Under the pieces are notes generated by a model. That model did not search any database and was not told the DNA's origin. It was given only the letters and a program-made list of their open reading frames with translations. A DNA stretch of 64,000 bases from Saccostrea echinata (lineage: Eukaryota), in assembly GCF_033153115.1 (NCBI RefSeq), contig NW_026889832.1, positions 1,302,001 through 1,366,000 of the forward strand, read 5' to 3'. The position numbers and the translations under genes were made by a program. Shown piece after piece: positions 29,430 to 52,132 of the stretch; within the stretch, counting starts at the first letter, position 1; each line of letters opens with the position of its first letter.

Positions 29430-31025
29430 TCGTGATCAACATCAGTACTGGTGGGATTAGGAATGTCCTTGCCGGCCTTAATCCATACAAGGCCACCGGT
29501 CCTGATAATGTCCAATGCAGATTATTGAGGGAGTTTGCAGTAGCCCCAGTATTTCAACTACTCTTCCAGGCATCAGTTAACCAGCGTACAATACCAACTG
29601 ATTGGAAGTCTGCAAATGTTGTGCCAATATACAAGAAAGGGGACAAAGACAAAGCTGAGAACTATAGACCGGTGTCCTTGAATTCAGTCACATGCAAGCT
29701 TCTTGAACATATCATGGTCAGTAACATCATGGACCACCTAGATACTCACAAGATCCTGCATGATGCACAACACGGATTCAGGAAACGCCGCTTCTGTGAA
29801 AGCCAGCTTATATTAACAGTACAGGATTTGGCTAAAAACTTGGACAACAAGGGACAGACAGATGTCATATTGGGATTAGAGGCATATGGGATTAGAGGCT
29901 ATCACCTGCAATGGATAGAGGACTTTTTAAGTGGACGCATCCAACAAGTTCTATTAGAGGGACAAACATAAGGTACAGCTGCAGTAAAATCTGGAGTACC
30001 ACAGGGGAGTGTTCTTGGACCACTCCTATTCCTTCTGTTTATTAATGATCTGCCAGAGTATGTATCCAAAAATTCAACTGTCCGCCTATTTGCAGATGAC
30101 TGTGCTCTATATAGAGACATCAAAGATGAGGATGATGCCATACAGCTCCAGAAAGACCTAGATGGACTTCAGAGATGGGAGGACGAATGAATGATGGAAT
30201 TTCATCCTGGCAAATGTCAGGTCTTACATGTTACCAACAAAAGGAAGGTGGTCAGTGTACCATATGTTATCCACGGTCATGTCCTCGAGGTAGTAGAAAC
30301 AGCTAAATACCTTGGAATCCACCTTCATGAAGGTCTGAAGTGGAACCACCACATTGATACCATTGCAAAGAAGGCCAATTCCACCGTTGCCTTTCTGAGA
30401 CGCAAACTACACCAGTGTCCATCAGAAACAGAGGCCCTATGCTATCAGACCTTAGTCAGGCCCATCTTGGAATACGGGAGCAACATCTGGGATCCTTACA
30501 CCAAGGATAGCATTGGCAAACTGGAGATGGTCCAAAGAAGAACTGCCCGTATGGTAACATCTGACCATAGAACAACTAGCAGCGTATCGGACATATTAAA
30601 ACAGCTGAGTTGGACATCTCTACAGGAGCGACGTGGTCAAGCAAAAGCTGTTATGATGTACCGCATAGTGTACCAGCTCATCGACATTCCAACACTCCTC
30701 TTGTTTCCAGCCACGACAACCAGAGGAAACAGCATGATGTTCCTGGTTCCTTATGCCAGAACCTTAGTGTACCAGAAGTCATTTTTCCCCGATGGTATTC
30801 GAGTGTGGAACTCTCTACCAACATCTTTGGTTACCACCACCTCCCTAGATAGCTTCAAATCGAAGCTATCCAGCCACATCATCCGACCGTAAACCAACCA
30901 ATCTATTTCACCTGCACTGTAAATAGTTTATCTTATTTTTGAATCACCTTGTTTTCCTCGCACCACCATGTGCCAGTACGAAATATCAGAAGTTCTGATC
31001 AGTACTTTATTGGAAGAAGAAGAAG
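29430..31025 (+). mobile_element. 5'-truncated CR1-group LINE (RT pseudogene)
   Basis: [50 protein letters not shown] and SFFP..IRVWNSLP motifs. Stops at 29969 and 30188, the DFSKAFD region is deleted, and it ends in a (GAA)4 tail. Confidence 0.9.
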
Positions 31026-31329
31026 GGCATTTGGAGGAATTTCGGGAGTAACTTTAACAGACTCCACGGGCACAGGTAAGTTTAAGTTAGCAGATGAATG
31101 CGAAGAGTTCGCATATTCAGGATTTGTTAGGGATGCTAAAAATGTACTAGCTTTTTTCTTTTGCTGAACGGAAAGATCTCTATTGTAGGATTTTAAAGAG
31201 GCTTCGGATCTATGACCAGACATGAACATCATTTGCCTTGCTTCAAATCCTGCATCGTTCATAGCAGTTATTGCAGTGGCACGCAGACAGTGGGGAGTAT
31301 ATGATTGTTGACATTTTGCGGACTTGGAT
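31026..31329 (-). pseudogene. Crypton-type tyrosine recombinase, C-terminal half (catalytic box II)
   Basis: SKSAKCQQSYTPHCLRATAITAMNDAGFEARQMMFMSGHRSEASLKSY contains HxxR, H and the catalytic Y. It is continuous with 50509-51762 across the TSD. Confidence 0.9.
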
Positions 31330-31483
31330 CAATCGGAACTCCTCGGATGTCTCGCGAACTCAACAATAACCTCGGATGTAAAACGATGGACGCCATCGCG
31401 CTTTGAATGTTGGGAAAGGGACTACTTTAACCTCGTTTTCTACAATGGTGGAAAAACGTGTTACTGTCGAGTGTAGTCTGCTC

Positions 31484-31780
31484 TTCGTAATTTGAGGGTA
31501 ATTAAATTTGATGGTAGTTTTTGCTTTAATTGATTGAATTAATTTTCTTCATTGTGTTTACTTCAGCATACACCGTTAGATAATTATAGAATAGTAGAAC
31601 TTTTATTTCCTGTCAGGTTATTTTAGAAAATTGTAGTGGTGTTCGTAATTTGATGGTAAGTTTTGCTTTAATTGATTGAATCGATTTTCTCCAATGGGTT
31701 TATTTTAGCATACACTGTTAGATAATTATAGAATGATTATAGAATTCTATAACTTTTATTTCCTGTCAGGTTATTTCAGA
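31484..31780. repeat. Two ~150-bp direct repeats inside the AcademH left arm
   Basis: ttcgtaatttga...ttttgctttaattgattgaat...acttttatttcctgtcaggttattt occurs twice. Confidence 0.7.
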
Positions 31781-31975
31781 AAGTATTAAACTTTTACGGG
31801 ATGCAAAAACCTGATAAATTGACAGAAGTGTAAATACTACCAAAACAAAAAAAATAAGCAAAGATATTCAATGAGAATTATGTCTCAGTGGTGGTTGATT
31901 TAATTTTTACAGCAAAAAGCATATCACGAAAAGTTTACAATGATATTCAGAAGAAATTTTTTTATTTCAGTTAAC

Positions 31976-32658
31976 CAGGTCTGGTACAATCACTAGATTT
32001 ACCTGCGTAGCTTGAATTACCTACATAGCTTCATTTACCTACCTGAAGTAGCTTAATTTATTTAGCAACTAAATCAAACTTATTTCTTAAATTAGCATTT
32101 TTCCCAGAAAGTGCAGAAAAGTGCACTTATGCAGTGATAATTTTCAACTTTGAAGTCATCTGAAAACAATTAATGAAAAAATCACTCTTGGAGATGTGTC
32201 TTTTTCTGCGCAATTGCATTCAAAGTTCTAAAAGTTTTGGGGCTATATAAAACAGTTAATTTGTGACCTAACAGTTACTTCTTGAGTGAAATAACAAAGA
32301 AAGCCAGTTTTGGTTAACATGAACACAATGAGAAGTAATCATACTTATCCACGCCTCATCGCACACAAGGTGGTGTACAGTTACTCAAACAATGGAAATG
32401 CATATTTTCCTTAAAAGTGTTCAAACGCAGCAATGTTAAAACTATTTCTGCTTTAGATTGCTTTTTAAATAATACGTAGAATAAATATTAGTAGACATTT
32501 ACTTGCGCCTTTTTGTCTTTTTAAAATATGAAGCAAAATTGTGAAAAGTTGCCTTAAAATAGCTAAATAAAGCTACCTGAGGTAGGTAAATAAAACTATG
32601 GTAGGTATGGTAGGTAATTTTAGCTACATAGCTAAATGTACTGATTGTACTAGACCTG
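31976..32658. mobile_element. hAT5-like non-autonomous element
   Basis: TIR caggtct(g/a)gtacaatca and a 5-bp TSD ttaac. Confidence 0.65.
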
Positions 32659-35600
32659 TTAACATGTAGATCTATTTATGGGAGTCCTGGTCATTAGATA
32701 TGTTTGATTGTTGAATTTGTCACAGCAAAGCAACTTGATGTGAATTATGAATTATCTAATTATTGTGGTATGAATTATCTAATTATGAAGAAATCCAACA
32801 TGGTTGAACGACAAAACCTGCTTGAACTTCACTGAAAAAACATGCAATAAACAAACTGAATTTGATCACATATTTTGTTAAGTTTTTCTTTGGGAAAACT
32901 TCCACTACATTTTGGGAATATACAGGCATATTATCAGTTGGGACTGGGGCCGAATTACGGCCCAAAATTGGCCCTTAAAAAATCATGTATGTTTGATTGC
33001 TGAATTTGTCACAGGTAATCAACTGGATTTAAAGGTATTGGACTAGCAGGTCCACCTAACAGATATAACTATAAGACAAACCCTGTTGAAATACTGTGTT
33101 GGTGCAGTGAGTAATGGTTTGTGTCATTTTTCGATACTTTTCATCGTAAAACATTTATTCAAAAAAAAATCTTTCAGTTTACATGTAGATCTGTTTACCA
33201 CAAACCTAGATATGGAGTCCTGGTTATCAGATATATATGTTTTGATTGCTGAATTTGCCACAAAGTTTGAGGTATATCAACTTTTACATCTGTATAGTAG
33301 GTCTTCCTCATGCTTTCTTGTCGAGTGTATGCAGTATGTGAGAAACATTATTCCAAAGTCATTTGATCAAGTTAAAGTTTACTTATTGAAAAATATAATT
33401 AATATATAGTACAACAATTAGTGTACTGTACATACAGCTTGATGATGCAAATATATCTATTACAGAAATAAGTACTTTCATACATGGCTTCTACAAAGGA
33501 ATCTGTTGAAACACCTGTCAAAGTGATCTTTGGGGACTGTTGTGTGGTTTGTGAGTCCAGTACACGACGTCTACACTGTTTTCAGAATGTAAAGGCCAGA
33601 GAAGAGCATTTCAGGAAAAATTATGAAGCAGTACTGGGACAGAGAGTAGAAATGTTTTCATCCTTGAAAATATGTTATGTTTGTGCAAAAAATTGTGCAG
33701 ACTTTGCAAATTTTCAGGTTATAGTGAAAGATTCTTACAATAACATTTTTCAACGAAAACGAACTAAGCGACTTGCGATAACTCCATCATCTAAACTTCA
33801 GAGTGAAAGTGTCGTTTAAAGACTAAAAAAATCTATTGAAAAAATTAAAAGTCTCAAAATGTCTGACCAAGATGATCCCTCTAGATTTAAAGTATCTACA
33901 TTGAAATCCAGAAAATGTCTTTCATTGGATGATGATCATTCATATAACAAAACCATAAAAGGAAATGCTAATATAGATGGTAAGGGTTGATTATATTTTT
34001 TCTTCTTTTAATTTTTTAAAAATTTTTCTAGTCATGATTTCACTATAGTAAAGCAAGCTTGGTACACTTGAAGAAATAAAATGTTTGTTTTTTTTTAAAA
34101 TAGTAGTTCTTGAAAGATAAATAAAAATTCTAATAATATTTATAAAATGATGCATCATTATGCTGTTCTGTATAAATTTTACAGCTTCATGCTCCAAAGA
34201 CCTTGTTTGTGCTTCATTTTATGACCATATATACACAACTTGTGTCAAAAACACCTGCTCGAGAGGAAAAGTCTCTCACTCCAGATCCAGACAGCTGCAA
34301 AAATACTAACACGTTCAATGCGGAATGTCTTTTGTCCCAGGTATCAAATCAATTAAAGCTTACAATTACCTTTAGAAATGGTAATTTTATGACATTTTAT
34401 TTGTTCTTGAACAGTAATCATCATTATCATATTGATTAAAATGAAATTAATAATCACATATGAAATTTTACTGTATAGTAGAGGTTTAACCATACAATGA
34501 TACAGCGACCATATTGATCGCAAGGGCTTACATGTATGTCATGATACAGTACAAGTTAATTTTCATTAATTAATTATCAGTTAATTTAATTGTTGACTGC
34601 TGCATCATGATACATGTTGTATTGCATAATTGTATCATATCATTAGATAGCTTGCGATACTCAGGCCTACTGTATAATATGCCAATATATTATTAAACTA
34701 CAGTCACTACACTTCTTAATTTTTGTAATGTGCTTGAATATTTTGAACTTGACAAATTTTCATCTCTTAGGTATCAGAGGAGTATAAGAACCTGGATGCA
34801 CAGATTTCTCAGTTAAGCAAAGCGAACGGGAGCATTTTGTGGTTAAGAGATCCCAACCACCTCAGTGACAGTGATATTTTTGAGAAGTGCATTTTGGAAA
34901 TGAATGAACAGTGTCCTCTTTTTCTGTCCATTCTTGTAACCTGTTTAGGGCAGAAAATATCCTTGGAGTCAAAAATGGCAACAATAGCAACCATTTATGG
35001 CATGATACTGCATTCAAGAAACATGAAGGTGTCAGCTGTGCAAAGAATCTATACAGCAATTGCAATCCACTGCCATGCTGACAATGAGGTAGTATAAATT
35101 ATTACAACTGTTTGATATATTTAAAAAAAATTAGTGGTAAATTTAGATGAGATCACAATAAGATATAAAGATTTTTTGAGATATATAAGCACAAAATGTG
35201 TCTTTATCTTGAATCAAGCATTTTTCTCCTAACCTAATTTTGCCACTACATTGTTTGAGTTATGTTGCAATAAGTTATTGGTATAAGTATAATGAAGAAT
35301 GGATAAAGTAAATGATTTTAAAGTAAAAACCAAACCAGTGATGAGTTAATTAAAAGAAAAATTATGACAAAAATTGTGAGGAATGTGTCATTTTATGCAT
35401 TCTTATTTGAATGTTATACCAATTGTTTTGCTTTATTGCATGCTTGTTATGTAGAAAAGAAATGTTGAAAAGGCATATTGATTTAGAAGAAGGACCTACA
35501 GAAGCCATAGTTATCAGAAGTTCTTGTGTCCATTGCCCAGGTTTAAAAAATTTTCATTGCTGTTTATGCTTAAGGGTAAGTATGATTTTATAAGTACTTA

Positions 35601-36866
35601 TTATTTTGCATTCTTAACATGTTTTATGTTTTTATTAATGATTTTTCTAATATATAATGCAAATAACTGGTAAATTATGTAAAATTTATTCTTGGACCAT
35701 TGATTGGGAAGGCTATAAAGGCCAATGGGACTATTGTAAGAATTTTTAATAGGCCATTTTGAAAATAAACGGGCCTTCTATATTCTTAAGGGTCATACTG
35801 CATTTTAAATGAACAAGATGTGAAAATAGAACAAGAATGTTGTACACAAAATATTTCCAATAAACATTGCTTAAAAAATTGAATGCGTACCATAGCCTCG
35901 ACTACATGTATTATTGATTTAATGTGCCAATTTTTACTACAACTTGCGACTTTGGCCAAGCCTTTCCCAATCACTCTTGGACAACCATCGATTTTTATTC
36001 ACTGAATTATAAGCTACAGTAAATGAATGTACATGTATTTTGTGTGATATTTTAAAAGAAAGTGAAAAATTTTGTTCGTTACTAAAGGATATGTAATATT
36101 CTTAACTTTCCTGTAAATGAAATCAAACTTAAATAGCACAAGTTAACTTCATGATATAATGATGCACAGATATATAATTTTTGAACCACAATACGGTACA
36201 ACTTTCTGTATTTTGGGGGTTAATCTGCATATTATTTAAGCCTTACTATCACACACATTTTTTTTCAGTTGTTTCACAGGCTGAACAAGGTTCACATCAC
36301 CCTTTCTCATGAGTTGAAAAGATTTCTGCTTGGAAAATTTGCTGAATACTCTGAGGAGGAAATAATCAAGCAGTATGCAGAGGAAAGGAATGGAGAAATC
36401 AATGGTGACAATCTGGTTATTTATGTGAGGTCAAATGACATAAGGCATGATCATACTAACAGAGATCTACATTTCTTTGCCTCTGACATCACATTTGATC
36501 GTGTTAAAGGAGACCATCTCAGTAAAACTTTACCCTGTGGTGAGGTGAACAATATGGACTTCAGGACTTTTGTTCCATCACTGACAGAATTGAATCTCTA
36601 CAAAGAGGCTTCCAAAATTCTTGTGGGAAGGCTTCTATCAGAAAATATGGAAGCTTTTGAGTGGACGAAGAATGTCATACCATTGCATATTCCACACAAA
36701 CATGAAAAGGAAATGGCAGAAAAATCCAGTACACTGCTGCTACCATTGCAGTTAAAGAATGAAATGCACCATGACCAGTGTGTTGAAATTATGCTAGAAT
36801 ATGAAAGAATAATCAATTCAATATATTCCAAATCTGGCAGAGGTACATGATCAAAGGGATGATATA

Positions 36867-37046
36867 CAGTTCAACTGTGGTATCTCGAACTCTGATATCT
36901 CAAATACCATCTATAGATATGTCCAAGTAATTAAGAGGTTCAAACAACTTTGTATCTAAGTATTTTACCCTCAATAACTAAAATCCTCAGATATCTCAAG
37001 TTTTTTTCTCAGGCCCCTGGAGTTCGAGATAAAGGAGGCTTGACTG
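36867..37046. mobile_element. Tc1/mariner-pogo-type MITE in a transposase intron
   Basis: TA|cagttcaac...tatctcgaact mirrored by agttcgagata...ttgactg|TA. Confidence 0.65.
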
Positions 37047-38357
37047 TAGTTGACACTAGTTCATGACAATCTTTTCACATATTAAATTTTGTAATGGCAC
37101 TTGCACATTGATGAAATATCAAATTCCATAATACTATGTAAAGCTGAAAATGAAGTACTCTGAATTCTTAATTGAATTTTTTTGTCAAAAATGTACAAAA
37201 AAATGTATTCTTCAGAACGTTCAAATAACAAGTATATAGCATAGTATTGCAAGTTGGTATTGAGTAATATATTCATAATTTTGTTTTTAGGTGCTGATCT
37301 AGAATCACCGAGTATTCCTGTGGGAGGGGATCAATTGACGCGTGTTAATCTACAATCTGCTAAAAATCTTCGAGCAGGCTGCCATACTGCAGCTGAGAGA
37401 TTAGAACATCTTGATCCTATTGTTGTGGAGTTATTTCATACATCAATGAACTTCCTGCAGGTATGCATGCATGTAAATGTATCATAATACATACATGTAA
37501 TACATATGGTCTTTAATATATAGAATTGTTAGATATGTTTTTAACCTCACCTGAGCTAAATTCTCAAGTGAGCTTTTCTGGTCAAAATTTATCTTAATAT
37601 CTTGGTGCCATATTAAAAGCTCTGTGAGTGAAACAATTACACATGTAAAGATTTAATTGATTGTTAATGAGTAAACATGTACATGTAGGTTACTGTTATG
37701 AAGGAAATTTAATATATTTCTTGTCAAAGTCGAGTTGTTTTGCCTCACATTTAAAAGATCCAATGTCCAATAAACAGTGTTTTTGGTCCTAATAAATGAG
37801 AATAATTTTATTGAGGAAAAAAAATCATGAAAATCCAATGAAGATGAATAGCAAGGACAAAAGTGATTCACTTGAGGTTTGTGGGCCATGGGCCCCATCT
37901 TAAGTACTCTTTCCCAAATAAATGCATGCAGATCATTCTTTTTTTAATTTCAGAAATTATTTGTCAAATTCTATAAAACAAACCATCTCCGAGATGTTGG
38001 CACTATGGCTCACCTTAAACTGCTTATACAGAGAGGAAATGTAAATGGACAGGTTAAAAGAAGGTTTGAGGTAAATAGTTTACATTTTGCAATTTGATGA
38101 AAAAAACCTCACACTGTATTATAGAGTAGAAGGAGTTCTGCACTGCTTATGTGAGTCACTGTAACTTATACGCAGGTAGGTTAAGGCTTCCCGTAGAATA
38201 TCACAGTGCACTGTGTGCCTTCACATCTCTGAACTACCAAAATATGACGTCATAATGGAAAATAACGTCAAGTCACTGCAAACTTGATATGTTATGACGG
38301 GGAGAGTGTCATGAACTCTACACTTTATTTCAAACTGCATGTAAAATGCTAGATAGC

Positions 38358-41300
38358 TGAAGAATACTCGAATTTAATCCGTTTTACAAACTTTATTACA
38401 TGTAACAGGCATTACAGCTTACATCAACATATGCTTTCACACCGACCTCCTGGCTGCACGCACTACCCATGCTAATACACACTGACACATGACCAACACT
38501 AAGAAACATAACTCTTGCACACAAACTCTTACGTACAATACACATTCAGAGTTACTTCCCTTAGATAATATCAATCCACTACAATACCCCCTTTTCTAGA
38601 ATAAACTTTTACAATTCTCAAAAATAAAATGAATTACTGGAAAGAAATTACTGTCCAAAATATTGATAGAAAACATTTACAATATACAGTCTTATATATA
38701 GAGAACTTACAATCAATCACATTCACAAGGAAATAAGTTTCACATTTCAAAGTCCTCAAAACGTTGCGGTAATTTCCTAATACGGGTCGACCTTCTCAGT
38801 TTCGGAGTTACTGGAGCAGAAGACGGAACATCATCACTGTTATCTGTAGACTCAACACTCGGTTCACTAGGAGTCTCTGGAATATCAGATGCACTTTCCG
38901 GTTCCTGATATTTTTTAACAAATTCACTATTTCGCTTCACTAAAACTCCCTCCGACGATTTTACGACACAACTGTTTCCCGTTTTCTGTACAAGTTTATA
39001 CGGCTCGGCATGATACGGCGTATCCATTTTATCCTTGACTGCTTTCTTCAATAGAACCGAATCTCCTAGCTCTAAATCACAATCCATTGCACCACGTTTC
39101 TTGTCGATATAAAGCTTGTTTTTGTATTTGGAATACACATCCTTATCACGCACTCCCTCATCATAAACATTTTATTGTAGATTTTCTACTTGTGGTAGCT
39201 TTGTTCTCAGTTTACGACGGAACATCAATTCTGCAGGTGGTACTCCTGTTGTATTATGAGGAGTCGTTCTGTATGCAAATAGATATTTGCGGACTTCTGT
39301 CTTCCAATTCTTAGACTCTGCTTGTGCTATCCGAATTCTTTTCATCAATGATCTGTTTTGTCTCTCTACCTCCCCGTTTGCTGATGGATGTAATGGTGTA
39401 ACTGCTCGGTGCTTGATACAGTTATCTGTTAAATAGTCCTTGAATAACTTAGATCTGAATTGGGGTCCATTGTCTGAAGTTATTTGTAGAGGAAGTCCAT
39501 GTCGACAAAACATTCCCTCCAGTATATCAATGATTTTCTCACTTGTAATATCCTTGGTAATTTCAATCTCATAGTATCGGCTGTAATAGTCCACAACAAC
39601 TAACACATACTGTCCAGATGTTAACGGTCCAAGAATGTCAATTGCCAATTCTTGCCATGGTCCTGTTGGTAAGGGTGTTGGACTGATTGGTTCTGGTTTC
39701 GGAAATGCACTAGTAATCTGACATCCATGACACGATTTCACATACTTCCCTCTTTGATAAAATTCCGAATTCTAATAAGTTCATCATCCCTCCTTGAAGC
39801 TTCTTCTACTTCATGAGTGGACAGTGCCTGAGGAGTTGCCTCCCTTGCAATAAATTTCACATATTGCTCAGTGTTCCATGAATTACTGTTTTCTGCAGGT
39901 GTCTTGTCCACCAAACGTGATAATGCATCTGCGATATTCTGATGCCCAGGTGAATACCGCACTTTGAAGTTGTAAGCCATAAGTTTTCATAGCCATCTTT
40001 CAATTCTTGCATTAGGTCTGGATTTTCTTCCATAAAGCACTTCCAATGGCTTGTGGTCTGTGATTAATTCAAAATCAACCCCGTATAGATAGATATGGAA
40101 CTTCTCACATGCCCATACAACTGCCAAAGCTTCTTTCTCTATTGAATAATTGCGTTCGGCTGCTGACAATGTACGACTAGCATAACTGATGACCCGTGTT
40201 TCACCCTTGTTAACTTGAAGTAGGACAGCACCAAGGCCTACATTGCTAGCATCTGTCACTAACTGAGTTTTTTCTGCATCTAATTTGTAATGTCCCAAAG
40301 TTTTCACATTTGACAAACAACTCTTTAAAGTGTCAAAACTTTTCTTCTGTTCAGCTGTCCAGACAAATTTCACATTTTTCTTTGTCAGTCTTCTGAGAGG
40401 TTCTGCCACAGTAGCAAGATTTGGTATATAACGAGCACTAAAGTTTACAAGTCCAAGGAAACTTTTCACTTCAGATCCATTTGTTGGCTCTTTAGCGTTG
40501 AGTAATGACTTGATCCTTTCAGTAGTAGGTCCTATACTATTCTTTGACAAGACATGCCCCATGAATGTTATTTTATTCATCTTAAATTCACACTTGTTTA
40601 AATTTAGTGTCAATCCTTTATCCTTGAGTCTCTGTAAGGCTTTGCGAAGTCGCTCATCATGTTCTGCTTTGTCACGACCGTAAATAACAATATCATCTGA
40701 AATATTCTGTACTCCTTCACAGTCATGAAACACTTGTAAAATCACTTGCTGATATTTCTCTGGAGCTGATGAAATGCCAAACATCAGTCTTTCATATCTG
40801 TAGAGACCTTTGTATGTAACGAATGTAGTGATCTCCCTTGATGACTCTTCCAGCTCAATTTGATGGTATCCACTTCTAAGGTCCAACTCACTAAAAACTT
40901 GGCTACCATTCACCATGTAGAGTATGTCATCCACTGTTGGAATAGGATGCCGTTCACGAATTATGGCAGCATTGGTTTGTCTCATGTCGACACACAATCT
41001 AATGTCACCACTGGGTTTTGGTACAATAATGACTGGACTGACCCACGGTGTAGGATCATTAACTCTTTCAATGATATCCTGAGACTCGAGTTCATCCAAC
41101 TGTTCTCCTACTTTATCCCTCAAACTGTAAGGAATTCTGTACAAAGCTTGTGCTACTGGTTTCACATTCTTGTCAATATGTAATTTCAACTTAAAGTCTT
41201 TTAGTTTTCCTATTCCTTGAAAACACTCAGAATATTCATGAACAATGTCAGTTGGCTGAACTGTGTTGACTCCAAGTTTCAAAACTCCTAAATTCATAGC

Positions 41301-42728
41301 AGTGTCCTTGCCTAGTAATGCCGGTCCTTTACCATCCAGTACATAGAATTCTTCTCTGCTGTTACCAGTTTCTTGAATTGATGCCTGCGTTCTGAATCTA
41401 CCAAGTAATTTTAAGGGTTCCGTAGAACTGTAAGAAAAGAGCTTTTTCTCGCACTTCTCTGACTGACACTTAATACGTTTCTTCTTCAGAGATTCCCAAA
41501 GTTCTTTGTCAATAATATTTGCTGACGCCCCACTGTCAATGACGAACTCCACGGGATTTCCTCCAAGACTGACTGTCACTTTATCCGACAACTTGTCCCC
41601 TGTTTTAAGACTGAATGCATACACATCAGAGTCAGAATCCAGTTCAGAATTATCCACTGTGTGAATTTTCCCTCCTTTGCTTGGTCTGCTTGTAGCCCCT
41701 TTTCCTGATTTCTGCTTTGTTAAACAACATTTCATAAAGTGTCCAACTTTTCCACATTTTCTACACTCTTTATTCCTCGCGGGACACGATATATCTTTGG
41801 CGAAATGACCATCTCGTCCACAACGAAAACACTTATTACCTGGCTTTTTGTTCTGAAATTTTTGTTTCTGTTTGTCAGTTTTTTCACGATGTCCCTGAAT
41901 TCTGTTAACTGACGCCACAATTTCAGTGTCCATATGTCTAGCCTGTACTTCAGTCATTTCATATGTAGCTGCTTTTGTCCTCAATTGTTCTAAAGTCAAA
42001 TCTTTTCCTTTCTCTAACAACTTAGCTCTTATTTTGTGAGACCTACACTTTTCAATCACTTGATCCCGAATTTGCTCATCCTGATTTGCAAAATCACAAT
42101 ACACTGCCTGTTGTCTCAATTTCGTAATAAACTGTTCTACTGTTTCATTCTCGGTTTGTGTTATTTTTCGAAAAACATAACGTTCATACGGCACATTCAC
42201 TTTGTTTTCAAAATGTTTATCTAATGTTTTCACTGCAACTGTGTACACATTGTCACCGTCACCCGCTTGCACTTCATTCAATGTATAAAAAATGTCTTGA
42301 ACTTCTGGTCCTGCACAATGTAATAACAATGCTTTTTTCTGTTCTGGGTCACTTACCCCTTTTCCAACCACAAAAAGTTCAAAACTTCTGTGCCATCTTT
42401 TCCACGCCTGATTTAACTGCGATGGTTCAACATTTGGATCAAATTTCCCAATTCCGTTGAGTTCTATGAGTGTAGCCATTTTGTATTCATCCTCGTCGCC
42501 AGTGAAGAATACTCGAATTTAATCCGTTTTACAAACTTTATTACATGTAACAGGCATTACAGCTTACATCAACATATGCTTTCACACCGACCTCCTGGCT
42601 GCACGCACTACCCATGCTAATACACACTGACACATGACCAACACTAAGAAACATAACTCTTGCACACAAACTCTTACGTACAATACACATTCAGAGTTAC
42701 TTCCCTTAGATAATATCAATCCACTACA
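38358..42728 (-). mobile_element. Gypsy (Mag-like) LTR retrotransposon
   Basis: 226-bp LTRs (38358-38583, 42503-42728) with TG..CA ends and a 5-bp TSD atagc. PBS tggcgacgaggatg (42501-42488) and PPT agaaaagggggtat next to the 3' LTR. Confidence 0.97.
38740..42479 (-). pseudogene. gag-pol polyprotein (gag with two CCHC knuckles, protease, RT, RNase H, integrase), disrupted
   Basis: CFRCGRDGH..C, IDSGA, ISDD RT, TDAS/TDHKPL RNase H and SDNG..NGEVER integrase. Stop at 39987, deletion/frameshift at ~39740 removing the integrase HH region, frameshift at ~39170. Confidence 0.92.
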
Positions 42729-45700
42729 ATAGCTTATGCAAAATTCACGGGTCGTTAAAGGTTTTTTAAGTCTTATATGTCCGAATGTTTTAAAAATACA
42801 CCGCTTACCTACCCTTGATTGAAATTCAGCATGTTCAGAATGCTTATGAAAAATATACTTTTGAAATGTACTCTGTTTTATACCCGTGGTTGAGGTAGAA
42901 TTTATTTTGTGTGTATAAAAGAGTCTGGCGCACGTGATTAATGAGGATTAATCTGAGAATTTCTGTGGAAATCTGTAAGAAGAGGTTGTTCTCTAACTAA
43001 ATCTTGCTTGGGAAAAATGTGTGTTGGCTTTGTTTTAATACAGATTACGATATTGTGTGGAAAATACCCTCAAATTTGTAGGTAAGTTGAATTTCTCAGG
43101 AAATATTTTGTACCCAAGTAATACCATGACTTTTCCCAAGCACATTTCGGATACACAAGGATACGATGAGTTTATTTATATAACAAAATGTTAATAATTA
43201 TCGTGTTAATCAGCTGCGCCGAAGCAATTTATATGAAACACTTCAAAAAATTATAAATGACCGTCACGTGATCAACAAAGTCATGTGATATCATAACAAA
43301 ATATGTTAATATATAGCCGAGGAAACCCTTTATATAAATTGGAAGTACTAAAGTTCAATACTTATAAATTAAAACCAAAACCGACCTCGCAATGACATAT
43401 TATGTTTTGAGCGCATTTTAAAGCTTCGGGAAGCCTTAACATAGCTGCGTAATTTAAAGATTAAGATAATATGGAAAATGTACTACAGTATATTGCTCTA
43501 ATTTATACACATCTTTAGCAATGTTGACGGGGCTAGACAAATAGCATTAGCTGACGCCCGGTGTAGCATTATATTTTGATACCGCGATATGTTGAACCCG
43601 GGTTCAAAAGGGGGGGGGGTTGAAATCAAGTGAAAAAAAGCAAGGCCAAAGTTACTCAGGTGAGCGTTGTGGCCCATGGGCCTCTTGTAATTGTCATAAT
43701 TGTTGCTGTTATTAAAATTGGAGCATTGACTGGAGAACACGCACGCGCTACGAAGTCTCCATAGAATTTGAAATCCCCCCTACCCCTTTTATTTTTTACC
43801 ATGGGAGAGCTAAGTGATCTTGGGTCAAAGTTGGTCCTTCACTGTAATGATATTAAATTAATGCTTCAATTTTGTGTTATTTAAAAACAAAAATAGGACA
43901 AGCATATTTTTTGGTAGGACAAGTAATTTTACGATGGAAACCTGTCTGAGGGCAAGTACTGAAAAATTCTATTCGTATACCCCTGGTTGACATAATTTTG
44001 TTCCATTTATAATAAACAACATTGGATGAACATACCACTTGCTGCAGATATGTACTACATAACATTTTTGTTGATATTCATACAAAACAGTATAAACTTT
44101 TAATTCATTTTAGGGTTTTTAGGCCCTTGCCATAAATTGGCAGAGGGCATATAGTGTTACCCTGTTCCGTCATTCTGTCATCATTGACTTTCCATTCATT
44201 TTCTCGGCAACAGTTGCAAACATTTAACTCAAATTTGACATACGGATACGCCATAGGAATGTATACACAAGTCAACTTCGAATTTAGTCATGGTCAGATG
44301 ATTTTTGACAGAGTTATCCCCCTTGAACTTAGAAAAAAATCAGAAATTTTCAGTTTCCGCTCTCTAAATTTTGTAGGAATGTATGTATAAGGTTGAAATT
44401 GCATATGTAGGTATTTTTCCAGAAAATACAGGTCAAATACAAATTTGGTCCTGATGCAAACAAATTTAAAACTAAATATGGCATTTGAAATTTTAACTGC
44501 TTGCGGGGGGCATTCTTGGCGTTATTACGCCTCTAGTTTCTAATTAAAAAGCTTTACTGCAAATTAAACAGGCACATGAAGAATTCACCTTGACTTTTGG
44601 AATGTCTTACCTTTTACTACTGGTGATGGATATATTTAAAATGGATGATTTGTCTTCCAAACCTATCCATCCTTTAATAAAGGAAAACATGAAAAATAAA
44701 CACACGCAGGACAAGAAGATGATTTTCAATGAAATTATGGATAGCATCTTGGACAGAGCAATGATTTTGCCCAATTTTATGGTATAAAAGAATTTATTTT
44801 ACCTGGTTTAGTACATTTATTGATGTTAATTTCTTTCGACTGATGTATGTAAACTCTAAGGGCATATTTTATACAACCTTCCTAAGTCAAGAGTTTCTGA
44901 TTCATTCCGATTCACATTAACCTTTGACGGAAATAACAGAGGTCAATAGAGTTCAAAACGTATTCAGTAAAACAGGCTTATAATGAATTGATGTTCATTC
45001 CCCATGAGTCTAAACATATTATGAAGCTAACAGATATAACGAAGCAAAATCACCCGTCCCTGGCATTTTGTTGTCAGTTCTCTTCTTTCGAGGGTTTATG
45101 TGGAGTGGTGTGGATCAGAAACCCTAGACTCGAGAAGATGATTTCATACCCCTGCCAAAAAGGTTGGAGGGGAGGGTATTTTCAGGAATCGTGTCTGCCT
45201 ATCAGTGGAGTATGTCAAAAGCTTGAGTTTTTCTGATCAAAATTTGTTGTTGATGTCTCATATTCTTCACTAGACAAAATTCAACCAAACTTGGCAAAAA
45301 GCATCCTTGGGCCAGAAAGATGAAACTTATTCGGAAGTTCTAAAATTTTAATAGCTAACTTTGCACCCTTAAATCTTGTTATTAGTCCATTATTGAACAC
45401 TATATGTTTCTAGCTTGTGTACATCCATATTCAAGCATATAGAAGGCTCAATTGAAGATGTTTTATTATTTTGGTTTCATGAATGTTCCTCTGTTAAGCA
45501 AATTATGTCAGTGTTTTCCACAGGCCATTTTTACATTGGGTGTCAATGGAGGCCTACTCAGTGTGTAGAAAAAATGCGCAACACAGCACATTAAAAAAAA
45601 GCCCAGTGGCATTAAAGGGGGGAGAGGGGGAACTAGTAGCAACAATTTTTTTTTTATGAATGCATCTATTTTATTAAAAAAAAAAGGGTTTGTTCTTTTA

Positions 45701-46990
45701 TTAAAAGTTAAATTGACAATTTATTCCAAATATATTTATTATTTAAATTAAGGGGGGGGGGGGCACCGCAAAGCTGAAAATCCCCTCACAAAGAGTATAT
45801 AAATGTGCCATGCCCCCTTTCAAGGGGAAATAATTAAGAATTTATGAAAATTTGGTTGCATCTTCCTTTCCTTCCAATCCCCCAACCCCCAATTCAATAC
45901 TGAACTGATTTCTGCTTCTTCTTAGCCAATGTGCTCAGGTGAGCGATGTGGTCCAAGGGCCTCTTGTTAATATTCCTGTGAGCTGAGGTTGACCAAAGAT
46001 ATATTTCTAGTTTAATTTGCTGTTACTTTTGGATTTGAATTTAAGGTAATTTTTAACAATTTACAGGGGGAAGAGAATGCAGACTTAATTTTGTGTGTTG
46101 GATCAAATGAAACAAAGATAGCAGCAACTAATATTGATGGAAGAATTTCATTGAACCTTATTTATGCAGATAAACAGTATAGGATGAACTTATCATATGA
46201 TGAAATCAAATCTTCTACCACTGGAATTTTTGTCAACATAGACACAGAAAATGGTATCATTCCAGTAAACATTCGTCTGAATTCTACTGATGAACGCATA
46301 ATTATGTCAAATGTTTTATGCAATGGTACTTTGTGCTCATTAATTCCAATGATGCAATCAAAGAAGGAGACTAGAACAAATGTTATTTTGAAACTTCCAA
46401 TACCATTTTTCTACAGTCATTCTGCTCTCTCAAAGTACATGGTTGAGTGCATCGACTACATTCTGAAAACCGAAGTGATGTTGTCACATCAGCTTTCCCT
46501 ACGTGTGCGAGCAGGATCTTTTGTTAATACAAAAGGAGGAAAAGGCAACAACAAAGCTAGATATCTTAAAAGAAAACCAGGTCAAAATGTTGAAAAATTA
46601 ATATGTGGACTTGGCTCGAACAAAACTAATAATGCCATAGTCATCATATCAAAGGCTGCACCAGTGATTGAGTCAATTGTAGAAAACTTTGACTCTGTTA
46701 TTAAACTCAAGGAAATCAACACCACACACAAAAAATTGAAATGATGGGAGACGTCAGCATCATCATAAAGTTTTTAAAGGAAAATCAAATATGGACTGAA
46801 ATACTAGGACGAACTCTCAGTGATTACCGTAACATTTCACAGTCCCCATTTACATTCTCTCGACACATATTCAGAATGGATTTAATGAATGTTGTTCACA
46901 GGCTTAGACGAGGTCTAGTAGAATTAAACATTATGTCAGATGATTCGGACGAGGAATCAGACTGAGTGTTTCCGATTTTAATATTCAAAA

Positions 46991-49900
46991 TTAGTTACCT
47001 GTAGCTACCACTTTGCAATTAGAGCAACACATTTCTGATGGAACTTGGTGTTGACCGCCAAATCCAAAATATTTCAGTACAAATGATCTTAGACAAGTTT
47101 TGGTCTTGACATATTCAATCATTATGGGATATAATCCTCTACGATTACTTGCAATGTCATTATTGTTATAGTACGTTATTGCTTTTGCATTTTGTCCACT
47201 TCGACTAGCCCTACCAACCTCTTGAACATATTTCTCAATGCTTGTTGGTGGTCGCATGTGAATTACCCTAGAAACTGAAGGTGAGTTTAGCCCCATCCAA
47301 AGTGATACACTTGCAAATACTAATCTAAGTTTCGGATTTTTGATGGAAAGTTCAGCCACAATGTGTAATTTCATTTTTTCAGAATAATCTTTATGATATT
47401 GCCCAAAAATTCTGTTTTCTGGTATTTTTTTTCACCTTCAGGACTGTATGCTTGGTCACCCAGTATGTCTTGGCAGAACATGTAACTGTAACCTATGGCC
47501 TCTAAGTTGTCACAATATACAATTGTGACGGGGTTATCAAGCTTGAGTTCTTTCAGCTCCTCACAAATACCTAACAAGATTTCATCATATTTCTCATGCT
47601 TTTTGATGTTGGGAAGCCGTGTCCGAACTTCATAGAATATGTTTATTCTGTCTGTATTTTCAATGACAACAGCAGGATTGTGAAACTCTAAAGTGTTGCA
47701 CAGTTGCTGAATATCTTGTATTGTTGAAGTTGCTGTCAATGCTAAGTGAGGCACATGACTAAAGATGCTTGTAAGTTGTCCTAACTTCGAAAACGCTTTC
47801 CGAACTTCTTTACCCCTACAAAATTTAAAATTGTATGCTGCTGTTGTTAAATTGCTAGGACCCATTGTATTGATATTTACTAGGCCTTTCCAAGTTCTTC
47901 CTATGTTTAGCGTCTGCGTGCACTTTGGTTTTTGACACAACATAGCAGAAAAAACAAACAAAATCAGAAGCCCTAAAATTGATTATTCTAGTCAAAATCT
48001 CTTAAATTCTTTTAATTATATCAATTTCTGAAAATATTTTTCTACAATATTATGTTTATTTTAAGAATTTAATACAATGATTTTGCTAAAGAATTTATCT
48101 TTCTTCGAGAAAATCATTAACAAAATCAAATGCTTTGAATGATGTCATTTTTAAGACTATAAAGTCTGTGTTTTATTTTTTAGCTTTTGTGTTTTTTTGC
48201 GAATACTGAGGTAGGTACATATGTAGGTTTTTAAAGATGGATGGACGCTAAACAGAGAAAAAACTTGGAATGGCCTTCCTTTGAACATTAACATGACAGC
48301 AGTGATGTGCAATGTGTATATGTAATTTTACCTATGTACATTTACATGTATATGTCTGATTATATTTAATTGAATATGTGTGGCTTTTGACATATATGAT
48401 TGAGCTGTTTTGTACTGAGAACATATTCAGAATAAATTTGTTAATGATTTTGACATTGACTAATTGATATATTTGCAAAATAATAGATTATCACTCTGAA
48501 ATCATGTGCACTTCATCAATTGCTGTGCAGCATACATTATCCTGATAAAGTTTACTTCTCAGTATCTTTCCAATTATTTTATTGTCTGTTAGTGTCTTGG
48601 GGTGTGCATATATCAAATGGTAGCCCCCATTCTGGAAGTCACTCATAGAAACACTTGAGTATGCAAAGGTTTCTTGACTTGCTCCATCAGCATCCTCATC
48701 TCTGAAGGAGAATTTACAGTCAATTTGTGGAAAAGAACAAACAAGGAGCAGGAATTTGTATGATATATTGAAAATACTGCTGTTGTCATTGAAAATACTT
48801 TCAGTTCATCTGAACTGAAAGCTCAGGTGAGCTTTTCTGATCACATTTTGTATTTCTACCTATTCGCCCGTTCAGCTGTAAACTGTTCACATTGTCGAGT
48901 TCTCCAGAAGTACTTGACCAATTTCAACTAAACTTGTCTCGGAGCATCCTTGGGTGAAGGGGATATCAGTTTTTTTTTTTAAGGGTAATGCCCTTGTTCA
49001 AGAGGAGATAATTAAGAATAAGTGAAATTTGGTGACATCTTAAAAACCACAATGTTACAACTTGTATTAAAGCTTCATTAAATAGTGTAGATTCAATGGG
49101 ACAGTCAGGCAAAAAAAAATTGTGAAACTTGGTAGCTTATTAACTCCAACTCCAAGATCGGGCTAAGTTTACAAGTTTATTAATAAGTAAATTTACTCAA
49201 GTATGACTATCTTTTATTTACTCATTGACATCTTGCAGAAAATAGGACTATCTTTTCAATACAGAGGTCAGACCTCCCAGTTGGTCATATATAAATAAAT
49301 AAACTGAAAGTGGACCTACTTAACTCCTGATCTAGCGTTACTTTAAAGAATATTAAAAGTAAGATTAAAAAATATTATATATATTACATACCCCCTTGTT
49401 ACACAGAGGAGTATTAAGGATATGAGGTATAAAAAGGGTAGGAGTATATGAAAGTCTATAAATAGAGCCTAGTGACAAGAGAGCTGGGACCAAACTTCCA
49501 AAAATATTTGTTTGCAGTTCCTGATCTATAATATTTGACTAGTTTGCTGGGTGTTTTTTTTTTTTTTTTTTTTTTTGTTAGATAACAAAAATAGACTGAA
49601 CATAATTTATAATCTTCATTTGTTATAAGCCATTGATTTAAAGAACAGAAAATGAAAAGTTTCAATATCTGAATGCTTGAAACTTAAAACAAATGTAATA
49701 CTACTAAAAAGCTTGAAAAAAGTTTGGGTCTGTTGCATTTTCAGGGGGTCAGTAAGCAACTGCAAACAAACAAATTCTTATTTTAGACCTGAGTAGACTA
49801 ATAAGACTGTCAAAGGAGAGGTGTTATATATTTTAATTACCTCGTGGAATTGAAAGTGAAGTAACGGCCACTTGTTCCTTCTATGTTAAGAAACATGGCC

Positions 49901-50176
49901 TTAACTCCCCTCAAACACAACTGCCTAACCTGGTCTTGCATGATGGAATTTAACGGTGAAACGATGAAAACAATCATAGGCCGAGCTTGCCGAATTTTCT
50001 CTGCAATAGATACGGCAATAACTGAAAAAGAATGCTTTTGTCATATCCAGTAGGCAGTACCGCCATTGTATCTCTACCTCAAAGACATTTTTCAAAGTTT
50101 CAATTTGCTTGTCGCGCAAATTAAATGAAATATCTAAACAAGACTCAGCATAAGCTTTGTCTTCTGCAAAGCCCAT
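46991..50176 (-). pseudogene. RecQ-like SF2 helicase of AcademH, three exons (50176-49841, 48701-48492, 47815-46991), decayed
   Basis: LRDKQ, LPTGYDKS (mutated Walker A), SPLNSIMQDQV, AIDEVHMISEWG, LALTAT, IVYC, QEVGRASRSG and C-terminal CLR..YFG..CCSNC. Contains frameshifts and one mutated splice donor. Confidence 0.88.
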
Positions 50177-50508
50177 GCTGACCTTATTGTCCTTATCTCA
50201 TCCAGCTGTTATTAACTTTCCTTGATTAAATTGTCTTATGATAACTACTTTGATTTAATTTGGACCTTTTATTTAATTAAAAGGAAACACAGAAAAGTCG
50301 GTTAATTTGATTATTGCATCTCAAACTAGACCATTGTGAGTTTTTGATGAGAAGTGGATTATATTATATGAACACTGCATTATTCGGTGGGAATTACTAC
50401 GCGGACCTGTTCACAAAATGCATCGAATTCACTCATGGCGTCCATCGTTTTACATCCGAGGTTACTGTTGATTGTTGAGTTCGCGAGACATCCGAGGAGT
50501 TCCGATTG

Positions 50509-51762
50509 GGACTTGGATATGTCCTTCATGAAGCATCTGAATGATTGTTTCTGAAGAGGTTTTGAAGTGTACCAGATGTCACAGGCACTTGGAAAAGAGA
50601 GAGCATCTTTTAAACAGACATTAAACAGTTGAGTAGCTCCTTTTTCTGTTTTCGACATGAGGAGACAAAGCATTTTGAGAGGACAAAAAGGGGAATCTGG
50701 GATAGCGTAGAAGCGTTTGTCAGCAGGAACTTCATCACTGTGGAGACCACCTTGAAAATTTTTTTGACGAGTCTCATGCCGGAGAACAACATATTCAGTA
50801 TTGCCCTCACTACAGAATTCAAATGAATCGAGACGCAGTTGATGGTGAAATTCAAGGCCGCGAGAAACAAAGTGCACAGACAGATTAAACCAGACACATT
50901 GACGGAGAACAATGGGTGAAAAAGGTGCAGCTTTGAAATAGGAAGAATTTTTTTCGAGATCGTGTTGATTAAGAACTGTTTTATGCATTGTCGGCCTTGA
51001 AGCGCCGCTTTGGGTCATTTGTTTGAGCATCCCATCAAGGGTACGGTTTGCTGATTTGAACACAGTGTCATGAACAATATCAATTGGCCGACCGATGTCT
51101 TGTAGGTGCCTATTGATTGCGGATCTTATGATTTTCAGAGTATTCTTATGGTAGTGCTGTGTTTGAACATCAATCATATTTTCTTTCCTTCTAGTGCATT
51201 CCTTTGGTTTGGTCTCACAGTAAAATTTTCGTAAGTGTGATGCCAGGACTTCAGCTGTCACATTAGCAAAATCAAGTGATTCATCATAGACCTCAGAATG
51301 CCAATCTGAAATATTTATACGACTTTGCTAGGAAAGGGGGAACAGCTTTTAATAGTATTAAAAAAAAAAAAGAAATGTAAGGTTTTTTTTAATTTTATTC
51401 TTTGTTTCAAATCTATTTAAAGGAAAAAGTTTATATTTTTAAAATTATTTACCTTGAAATAATTTAATAGCCGACTTTGTATACATTTTGGTAGATTTTG
51501 ACTGCCTTGCATCTTCAAACTTTTTAAGATCATTTTCAGTACACGACTTGAATCTTTTGGGTACAGCTGGGGTCTCTGGAGGAGGGAGGCATGTAAAGGC
51601 ACTCTCTAACAATTTTTCCTTCATTTCAATCACATTCTGGACAGAGGATACTACTTCCATATTTGATAGATCCAAATTTTCCATAATTTCATCATCAAAG
51701 AGGAGCAATAACTCCTCACAAATTTAATTTTCCCCAATATTAAAGTCTCCATAATCAGCCAT
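50509..51762 (-). pseudogene. Crypton-type tyrosine recombinase (DUF3504/KCTD1-ZMYM-related), N-terminal part; intron 51452-51306
   Basis: Spliced junction KLFQ|DWHSEVY is in frame. Motifs LRKFYCE, IRSAINRHL, FVSRGLE (catalytic R), KNFQGG and CPL. A TAA follows 12 codons after ATG 51762; the next in-frame ATG is at 51684. Confidence 0.88.
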
Positions 51763-52132
51763 GTTTCATGTATAATTTACATGTAAAATGCAGAAGCAGA
51801 CGGATTTGTATAAATACATGGTTTTTATTTTTTCAAGTCATATATATTATGCATTTCTATTCAAGAAAATAAATGATAAATGTAGATTTGTTAATAAATA
51901 CTACAAAACAAGGCTTTGTTTGGCATGTTTTATTGTTTTCAGTTGTGTGACCTAATTTACAATGTTTACATATAGAAAGAAGTACTATTCCATGTAGATA
52001 TTACTACGCCATGTAATTCGACCATGTATTGACCTCTGACCTCTGAAAAACTTCATACAGAAATGAAGATATTTGCTCTCTGTATGTTTATATAATGGAG
52101 AAATACCACAAATGTATATATTTAAATGTGTT

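Follow-up and report, generated by a model that had tools for sequence, protein, structure and literature searches.

The window analyzed here is a 64-kb stretch of contig NW_026889832.1 from Saccostrea echinata. On its minus strand lies a Crypton-type (DUF3504) tyrosine-recombinase gene that is cut by a 19,179-nt insert at 31330–50508. The 10-bp sequence GGACTTGGAT occurs exactly twice in the window, at 31320–31329 and 50509–50518, and its two copies immediately flank a pair of inverted repeats (67 and 74 nt) whose sole difference is one 7-nt indel. With the insert and one copy of this target-site duplication (TSD) taken out, the recombinase reading frame is unbroken across the joined junction. 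A first-pass annotation of this DNA had proposed a tyrosine-recombinase gene split by a 19-kb insertion with a 10-bp TSD; both proposals are borne out by the TSD copies, the terminal inverted repeats (TIRs), the continuous frame, and two paralogues with an empty site, L002 and L003. The features of the locus, in the direction of the recombinase gene, are the following.

51763–52122, minus strand: Crypton 5′ end and leader, the end reading ...GTATATATT, at an ATT-type target with no clear duplication (placed by the limit of homology and by the unoccupied site on contig C40)
51453–51762, minus strand: exon 1 of the recombinase (310 nt), beginning at the family ATG (51762), with N94Y and W97S
51724–51726, minus strand: premature stop TAA at codon 13, GAA (Glu) in paralogues L002 and L004
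51306–51452, minus strand: phase-1 GT–AG intron, 147 nt, at a position common to three paralogues
50519–51305, minus strand: first part of recombinase exon 2, with DUF3504, the catalytic Arg (SRG, 50857–50865), and Lys (KNF, 50755–50766)
50509–50518, no strand: right TSD copy, 10 bp
50435–50508, minus strand: right TIR, 74 nt
46991–50078, minus strand: broken RecQ-type helicase gene (Helicase_C, RecQ_Zn_bind)
33484–46744, plus strand: broken multi-exon DUF6589 transposase gene (exon limits predicted)
38358–42728, minus strand: nested Gypsy long terminal repeat (LTR) retrotransposon, recognized by its LTRs, duplication, and domain matches
31330–31396, plus strand: left TIR, 67 nt
31320–31329, no strand: left TSD copy, 10 bp
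31026–31319, minus strand: second part of recombinase exon 2, with HxxR (31281–31292), His (31209–31217), and Tyr (31182–31190), ending at codon 467 of 516
31076–31188, plus strand: 113-nt GT...AG stretch opposite the recombinase (L002:1257–1369), skipped in contigs of five public runs of paralogous copies
29435–31025, plus strand: 5′-truncated long interspersed nuclear element (LINE) with a (GAA)n tail and no duplication

The insertion point lies between the catalytic Lys and the HxxR motif. In profile searches, the right-hand minus-strand frame of the window matches DUF3504 (E 3.8e-7), and the left-hand frame matches Phage_integrase at an E value of 2.9e-5, below the curated cut-off. When the right-hand recombinase part was searched against the genome from which the window comes (923 Mb, 425 contigs; all genome searches give lower bounds), 17 matches were obtained, including three close paralogues at 92–97%. 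The empty site is present in L002 and L003, both of which are uninterrupted through the junction, and L004 has lost the junction through an internal deletion. All four close Crypton copies sit at unrelated genomic sites, and homology of the window copy to L002, L003, and L004, as well as to 1.1-kb non-autonomous copies, ends at the Crypton 5′ end. L002 is a 2.5-kb element with an open 516-codon gene and the same phase-1 intron; its two recombinase exons are the only long sense frames, with matches to DUF3504 (E 6e-9) and Phage_integrase (E 5.7e-9).

With the second exon of L002 as query, 95 homologues were retrieved, the named ones being mostly uncharacterised mollusc proteins. The joined window product aligns across the junction in one high-scoring segment pair with 83 of the 95, in 82 of these 83 without a gap within 5 residues, which is the contiguous alignment that the first-pass annotation had expected. 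Among the 29 homologues taken into the catalytic-residue alignment, R, K, H, R, and Y show no variation and 28 carry the second H; the window copy has all six, in agreement with the earlier claim that every catalytic position is present. The predicted structure of the L002 exon (predicted local distance difference test score 75) matches the folds of QRICH1, Cre, XerH, and lambda integrase, whereas a search of solved structures by sequence gave weak matches to XerA and integrase (E 0.05–1). The DUF3504 match, the homologues, and these fold matches sustain the Crypton/DUF3504 assignment made initially. What the insert interrupts is a gene of a transposon and not of the host; a domesticated gene of the KCTD1/ZMYM type is ruled out by the intact tetrad and by the element ends on the copies. 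No splicing of the sense intron was seen in contigs of public runs, and one contig retains the intron.

L002 is the only fully open close paralogue (L002:1057–2760), and it carries Asp383 beside the catalytic Arg, at a position that is A, S, or T in 29 of 29 homologues; its recombinase may be impaired by this residue. Two more Crypton families, with open second exons and 56–58% identity to L002, are represented by L005, L008, L022, L023, and L024. Interruption is not confined to the window copy, since two other Crypton copies among the 17 matches are also interrupted. In the sister Crypton L006, a 1,060-nt element (L006:2292–3351) bounded by 28-nt TIRs and flanked by a 5-bp duplication separates HxxR from the second His, at a point 30 codons beyond that of the window copy; in L010 the interruption is a repeat of about 0.9 kb. 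Interrupted Cryptons in medaka are already listed in Table 2 of PMC3212892.

Comparison with the paralogues reveals several lesions in the window copy. The first-pass annotation had read a frame open from ATG 51684 over one phase-1 intron; that frame is indeed open and the intron measures 147 nt, but ATG 51684 is codon 27 of a gene whose family start is ATG 51762, and the TAA at codon 13 lies in between. Over about 1,400 coding nucleotides, 25 substitutions are private to the copy (8 synonymous, 16 missense, and 1 nonsense), with a ratio of nonsynonymous to synonymous rates (dN/dS) of about 0.57 that is not different from neutral in an underpowered test (P 0.14). N94Y and W97S fall in a motif with Trp in 16 of 16 homologues, the homologues having been selected with a pattern that accepts W, S, or F there. 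Paralogue homology ends at 31026, where the (GAA)n tail of the LINE abuts codon 467 and 49 native C-terminal codons are replaced by 8 from the LINE tail; the last ~620 nt of the Crypton, represented by the 3′ region of L002, have no match anywhere in the 64-kb window. Removal of the insert, which had been expected to restore the recombinase, therefore rejoins the frame of the catalytic domain but does not yield the native protein.

A paralogous segment on C40 places these lesions in context. It is collinear with both outer flanks of the locus (window 15–59 kb against G000:C40:241800–266800, at 74–93%) and also displays the unoccupied site of the Crypton. Because it holds about 5.9 kb that are missing at the LINE joint, the 3′ end of the Crypton and probably host DNA as well would have been deleted there. 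Judged from its sequence, the window Crypton is the remnant of a family member, with its 3′ terminus deleted, and not a mobile copy.

Within the insert, a plus-strand DUF6589 transposase gene faces a convergent helicase gene. The transposase matches DUF6589 above the cut-off (E 3.7e-10, with a second window match at E 5.2e-5), and the helicase matches Helicase_C (E 3.3e-9) and RecQ_Zn_bind (E 4.1e-6). Both genes are broken: the transposase has a stop in exon 1 (33817–33819), a GDNLD motif changed to GDNLV, a frame change near 46370, and an altered KAADxxxE stretch, and the helicase has a Walker A motif changed from GYGKS to GYDKS and frame changes near 49990 and at 47431–47437. DUF6589 is presumably the Academ transposase, a link for which a literature search found no relevant paper. 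The insert is accordingly named a putative AcademH-type element. The nested Gypsy, which lies in a repeat within a transposase intron, has identical 226-nt TG...CA LTRs, a 5-bp duplication (ATAGC), and an interrupted pol, and is a young element. The intron repeat, about 1 kb in length, is split by the Gypsy into 38170–38345 and 42922–43461 and has relatives in L010 and L093. A partnership between Crypton and Academ, considered when L010 matched the Academ interior, was rejected, the match being an unrelated repeat in the transposase intron.

The convergent transposase–helicase pair recurs in all four relatives fetched from the genome, three of which have CA..TG TIRs with 10-bp duplications. 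These related elements, 7.7–13.9 kb long with exact TIRs and 10-bp duplications, are located as follows.

L097–L098:2723–10523: related transposase–helicase element
L095–L096:3175–10903: related transposase–helicase element
L099–L100:706–14583: related transposase–helicase element

The window TIR also bounds three short elements with 10-bp duplications (L033, L034, and L039, the last with one mismatch). Genome-wide, the TIR pattern gave at least 13 matches, made up of four paired elements and five single ends, and no second full-length element with the window TIR was found among them, the five unpaired ends having been checked within 1.5 kb. The next-best relative of the transposase exon has 47% identity, and a DNA search of the genome for a close intact helper gave only a 0.4-kb remnant at 93–95%, both searches being lower bounds. 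A single transposase exon compared with longer proteins had no match at E ≤ 0.001 among 589 candidates, which is weak evidence. No target-sequence preference of the Academ family is evident from the few duplications seen. Two of the short elements, at L033:1465–1543 and L039:1501–1564, are fold-backs of 79 and 64 nt that consist almost entirely of the Academ TIR. Each is flanked by a 10-bp duplication, and the target sequence of L039 occurs empty in the flank of L002.

The 3′ end of the Crypton family (L002:584–760), which is absent from the window copy, forms a hairpin some 160 nt in length (−79 kcal/mol, z −20). A genome search for this hairpin yielded 1,409 candidates, of which 40 were scored, and 23 loci were examined (L060–L082). 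All but one of the 23 are non-autonomous elements of 1.10–1.16 kb in which about 130 nt of the opposite end are common as well. There is no TIR pair at the two ends of family elements; because the inner foot of the hairpin carries the reverse complement of the far end (12 nt exact in 19 of 22 copies), the inside of the element mirrors its joined ends. At the two sites with a known empty state, that of L082 in its own hairpin and that of the window copy compared with C40, the target is ATT and no clear duplication is present. In L004, the Crypton copy is deleted from mid-gene to the hairpin loop (L004:2105–2170) and sits inside another DUF6589-type transposase gene.

Based on these data, the locus is very probably a dead CryptonA-type copy that holds a dead AcademH-type element, which in turn holds a Gypsy, beside a LINE. 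The first-pass annotation had gone further and suggested that precise excision could reactivate the recombinase. The insert would then be a removable interruption comparable to the bacterial skin or nifD elements, and the joined frame, open from Met27 with R-K-H-R-H-Y intact, as well as the perfect TIRs and TSD, would be in keeping with such a switch. That the catalytic domain can be rebuilt on paper is nevertheless expected, because a TSD preserves the target sequence in any TSD-making insertion, and a footprint, not the clean loss of one TSD copy, is the usual outcome of cut-and-paste excision by DDE transposases. Reactivation is not supported because of the nonsense codon, N94Y and W97S, the LINE-derived tail, the missing 3′ terminus, the broken transposase and helicase genes, and the failure of lower-bound searches to find a close helper; uninterrupted paralogues without the insert exist as well. 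Six public sequencing runs contained 5–8% of the query words (none more than 8%), none of them on record as RNA, and contigs of four runs were compared with 30600–31900 and of four with L002, five different runs in total. Three contigs cross the empty junction, all with T at 31230 and A at 31278, the alleles of L002 and L003, and not with the C and G of the window; two of the three extend into the native tail and not into the LINE. By these alleles the contigs are paralogue-derived; they give no sign of excision and are no test of it, since no run contains the locus. The empty site sought by the first-pass annotation thus exists in the genome at L002 and L003, whereas no locus-specific version was found in the public contigs, a weak test in runs without this locus. 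An excision switch is extremely improbable. We attach an equally small probability to an assembly artefact that fused two repeat copies. The genome is repeat-rich and neither junction of the insert was bridged by any run, but a mis-join would not place exact 10-bp copies of the target seen in the paralogues on the outer sides of matching TIRs, and both halves of the gene differ from every paralogue while both outer flanks are collinear with a single C40 segment.

The order of events is less firmly set. It is very unlikely that the Academ insertion knocked out a then-active Crypton copy that acquired its other lesions later, even though the intact catalytic residues, the private dN/dS of 0.57, and the position of the insertion between the catalytic Lys and HxxR could be read in that way. 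The Crypton has accumulated its 25 private substitutions, whereas the TIR and TSD pairs (77 nt) differ by none, against 2.75 expected at the Crypton private rate (P 0.064), so that decay before the Academ insertion is weakly favoured; knockout first would in any case be only another order within the same ordinary picture. Of the "recent insertional knockout" proposed initially, the insertional split stands, "recent" draws weak support from the same substitution test, and that test suggests that the Crypton was already decaying before it was split. In the sequence of events that we favour, the Crypton would have integrated at an ATT target and then decayed. The hairpin at its 3′ end would have been lost, along with about 5.9 kb of host DNA, through a LINE insertion and a deletion, simultaneous or later. 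The Academ element was probably defective by this time and would then have been mobilised by a helper transposase acting in trans and have entered exon 2, with the Gypsy arriving either before or after this jump.

Several observations weigh against the interpretation of the locus as a pile of dead elements assembled in this order. The point estimate of dN/dS lies below 1. If the insert is removed, 449 codons can be read without a stop from Met27, catalytic residues all included, and Ala383 is retained in the window copy, in contrast to the Asp of the open paralogue L002; a shortened protein starting at Met27 could therefore conceivably act in trans. An active Academ helper may be present in other individuals. 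For the order of events, the support consists of one weak test (P 0.06) and a paralogous segment with no more than 74–93% identity. Finally, no run bridged the Academ junctions at the locus, and the LINE junction was bridged by no contig of the runs compared.

The same contigs bear on transcription of the family. The 113-nt stretch opposite the recombinase is skipped in contigs of all five runs, which come from three studies, and in the contigs compared with 30600–31900 the skipped part is uncovered. Its GT..AG ends can be read on the plus strand only, with a CAG|GTAAGT donor and a pyrimidine tract, and the acceptor overlaps the catalytic Tyr codon. The skip-bearing contigs differ from each other, which indicates more than one template, and the assembly yielded no DNA copy with a 113-nt gap. 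In two studies, contigs end at L002:1029 and L002:1047, near the stop codon, a weak hint of a start. The RNA status of the skip-bearing runs is a guess, one of them being guessed to be DNA. A spliced antisense RNA from the family is a likely explanation of this pattern. A regulatory role of such an RNA is unlikely. The spliced product has no open reading frame over 37 codons. Conservation of the antisense intron across Crypton families is unsupported, as the acceptor is absent in the sister copies L005 and L008, and the search pattern did not locate the splice site in L022 and L024. Beyond this, it is conceivable, if rather unlikely, that the family is an active Crypton lineage that moves via a folded strand, the hairpin and its mirror of the joined ends serving as recombinase substrate, inserting at ATT targets, and driving the 1.1-kb copies, and that it would restrain itself by the spliced antisense RNA started near the stop codon and spliced across the Tyr codon.

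Other parts of the window hold features apart from this locus. A 3.1-kb stretch at 60263–63348 with 65-nt inverted ends and 11-nt subterminal repeats is probably a further DNA transposon. A palindromic array of 19- and 22-nt units with inverted ends lies at 8859–9442, and exon-like frames at 14220–16374 show, by eye, EGF-like cysteine spacing and a hydrophobic segment.

The locus itself, most likely an ordinary pile-up of nested transposons, is of little importance, although it is a clear illustration of nesting among four mobile elements (Crypton, LINE, AcademH-type, and Gypsy) and a warning that the removal in silico of any TSD-making insertion "restores" a gene. It also adds four AcademH-type elements with exact ends. 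The results at the level of the Crypton family could matter more. In the sources cited here, Crypton movement is only proposed, and they report no terminal structure for animal Cryptons; the hairpin and its mirror of the junction, together with the ATT target, represent a concrete substrate for a recombination assay.

Animal CryptonA elements encode a single DUF3504 tyrosine recombinase with an R-H-R-Y tetrad and no extra C-terminal domain, and Kojima and Jurka (2011, PMC3212892) record no terminal repeats in animal Cryptons. Likewise, the window family has a DUF3504 recombinase as its sole protein and keeps R-H-R-Y, unlike the domesticated KCTD1, ZMYM, and QRICH1; it has several dispersed copies and far more abundant non-autonomous derivatives, with both ends common, and makes no long target duplication. 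It differs in that the window copy is truncated and dead and in that intact members of the family carry the 160-nt terminal hairpin and, internally, a mirror of the joined ends. By its features the family is probably CryptonA-type.

AcademH elements encode a helicase and make 9- or 10-bp target duplications, as described in PMC10045372 and PMC10799480. The insert resembles them in its pairing of a transposase with a helicase, its TIRs, its 10-bp duplication, and its low copy number, and differs in that both of its genes are broken and that it is enlarged by the Gypsy and by intronic repeats. The pairing of a DDD/E transposase with a RecQ helicase is also found in KolobokH, which PMC9587614 describes from fungi only, with TTAA 4-bp duplications and RR..YY termini; identity with KolobokH is excluded by the 10-bp duplication and CA..TG termini of the window element. 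For the internal mirror of the Crypton family, the nearest parallel is the internal complementary region of DIRS-like retrotransposons, which is complementary to both joined ends (PMC13465315). Intact family members would share with these elements the presence, inside a tyrosine-recombinase element, of a sequence complementary to both of its joined ends; in contrast to them, the Crypton family has no reverse transcriptase and has its mirror, which the window copy has lost, at the foot of a long terminal hairpin.

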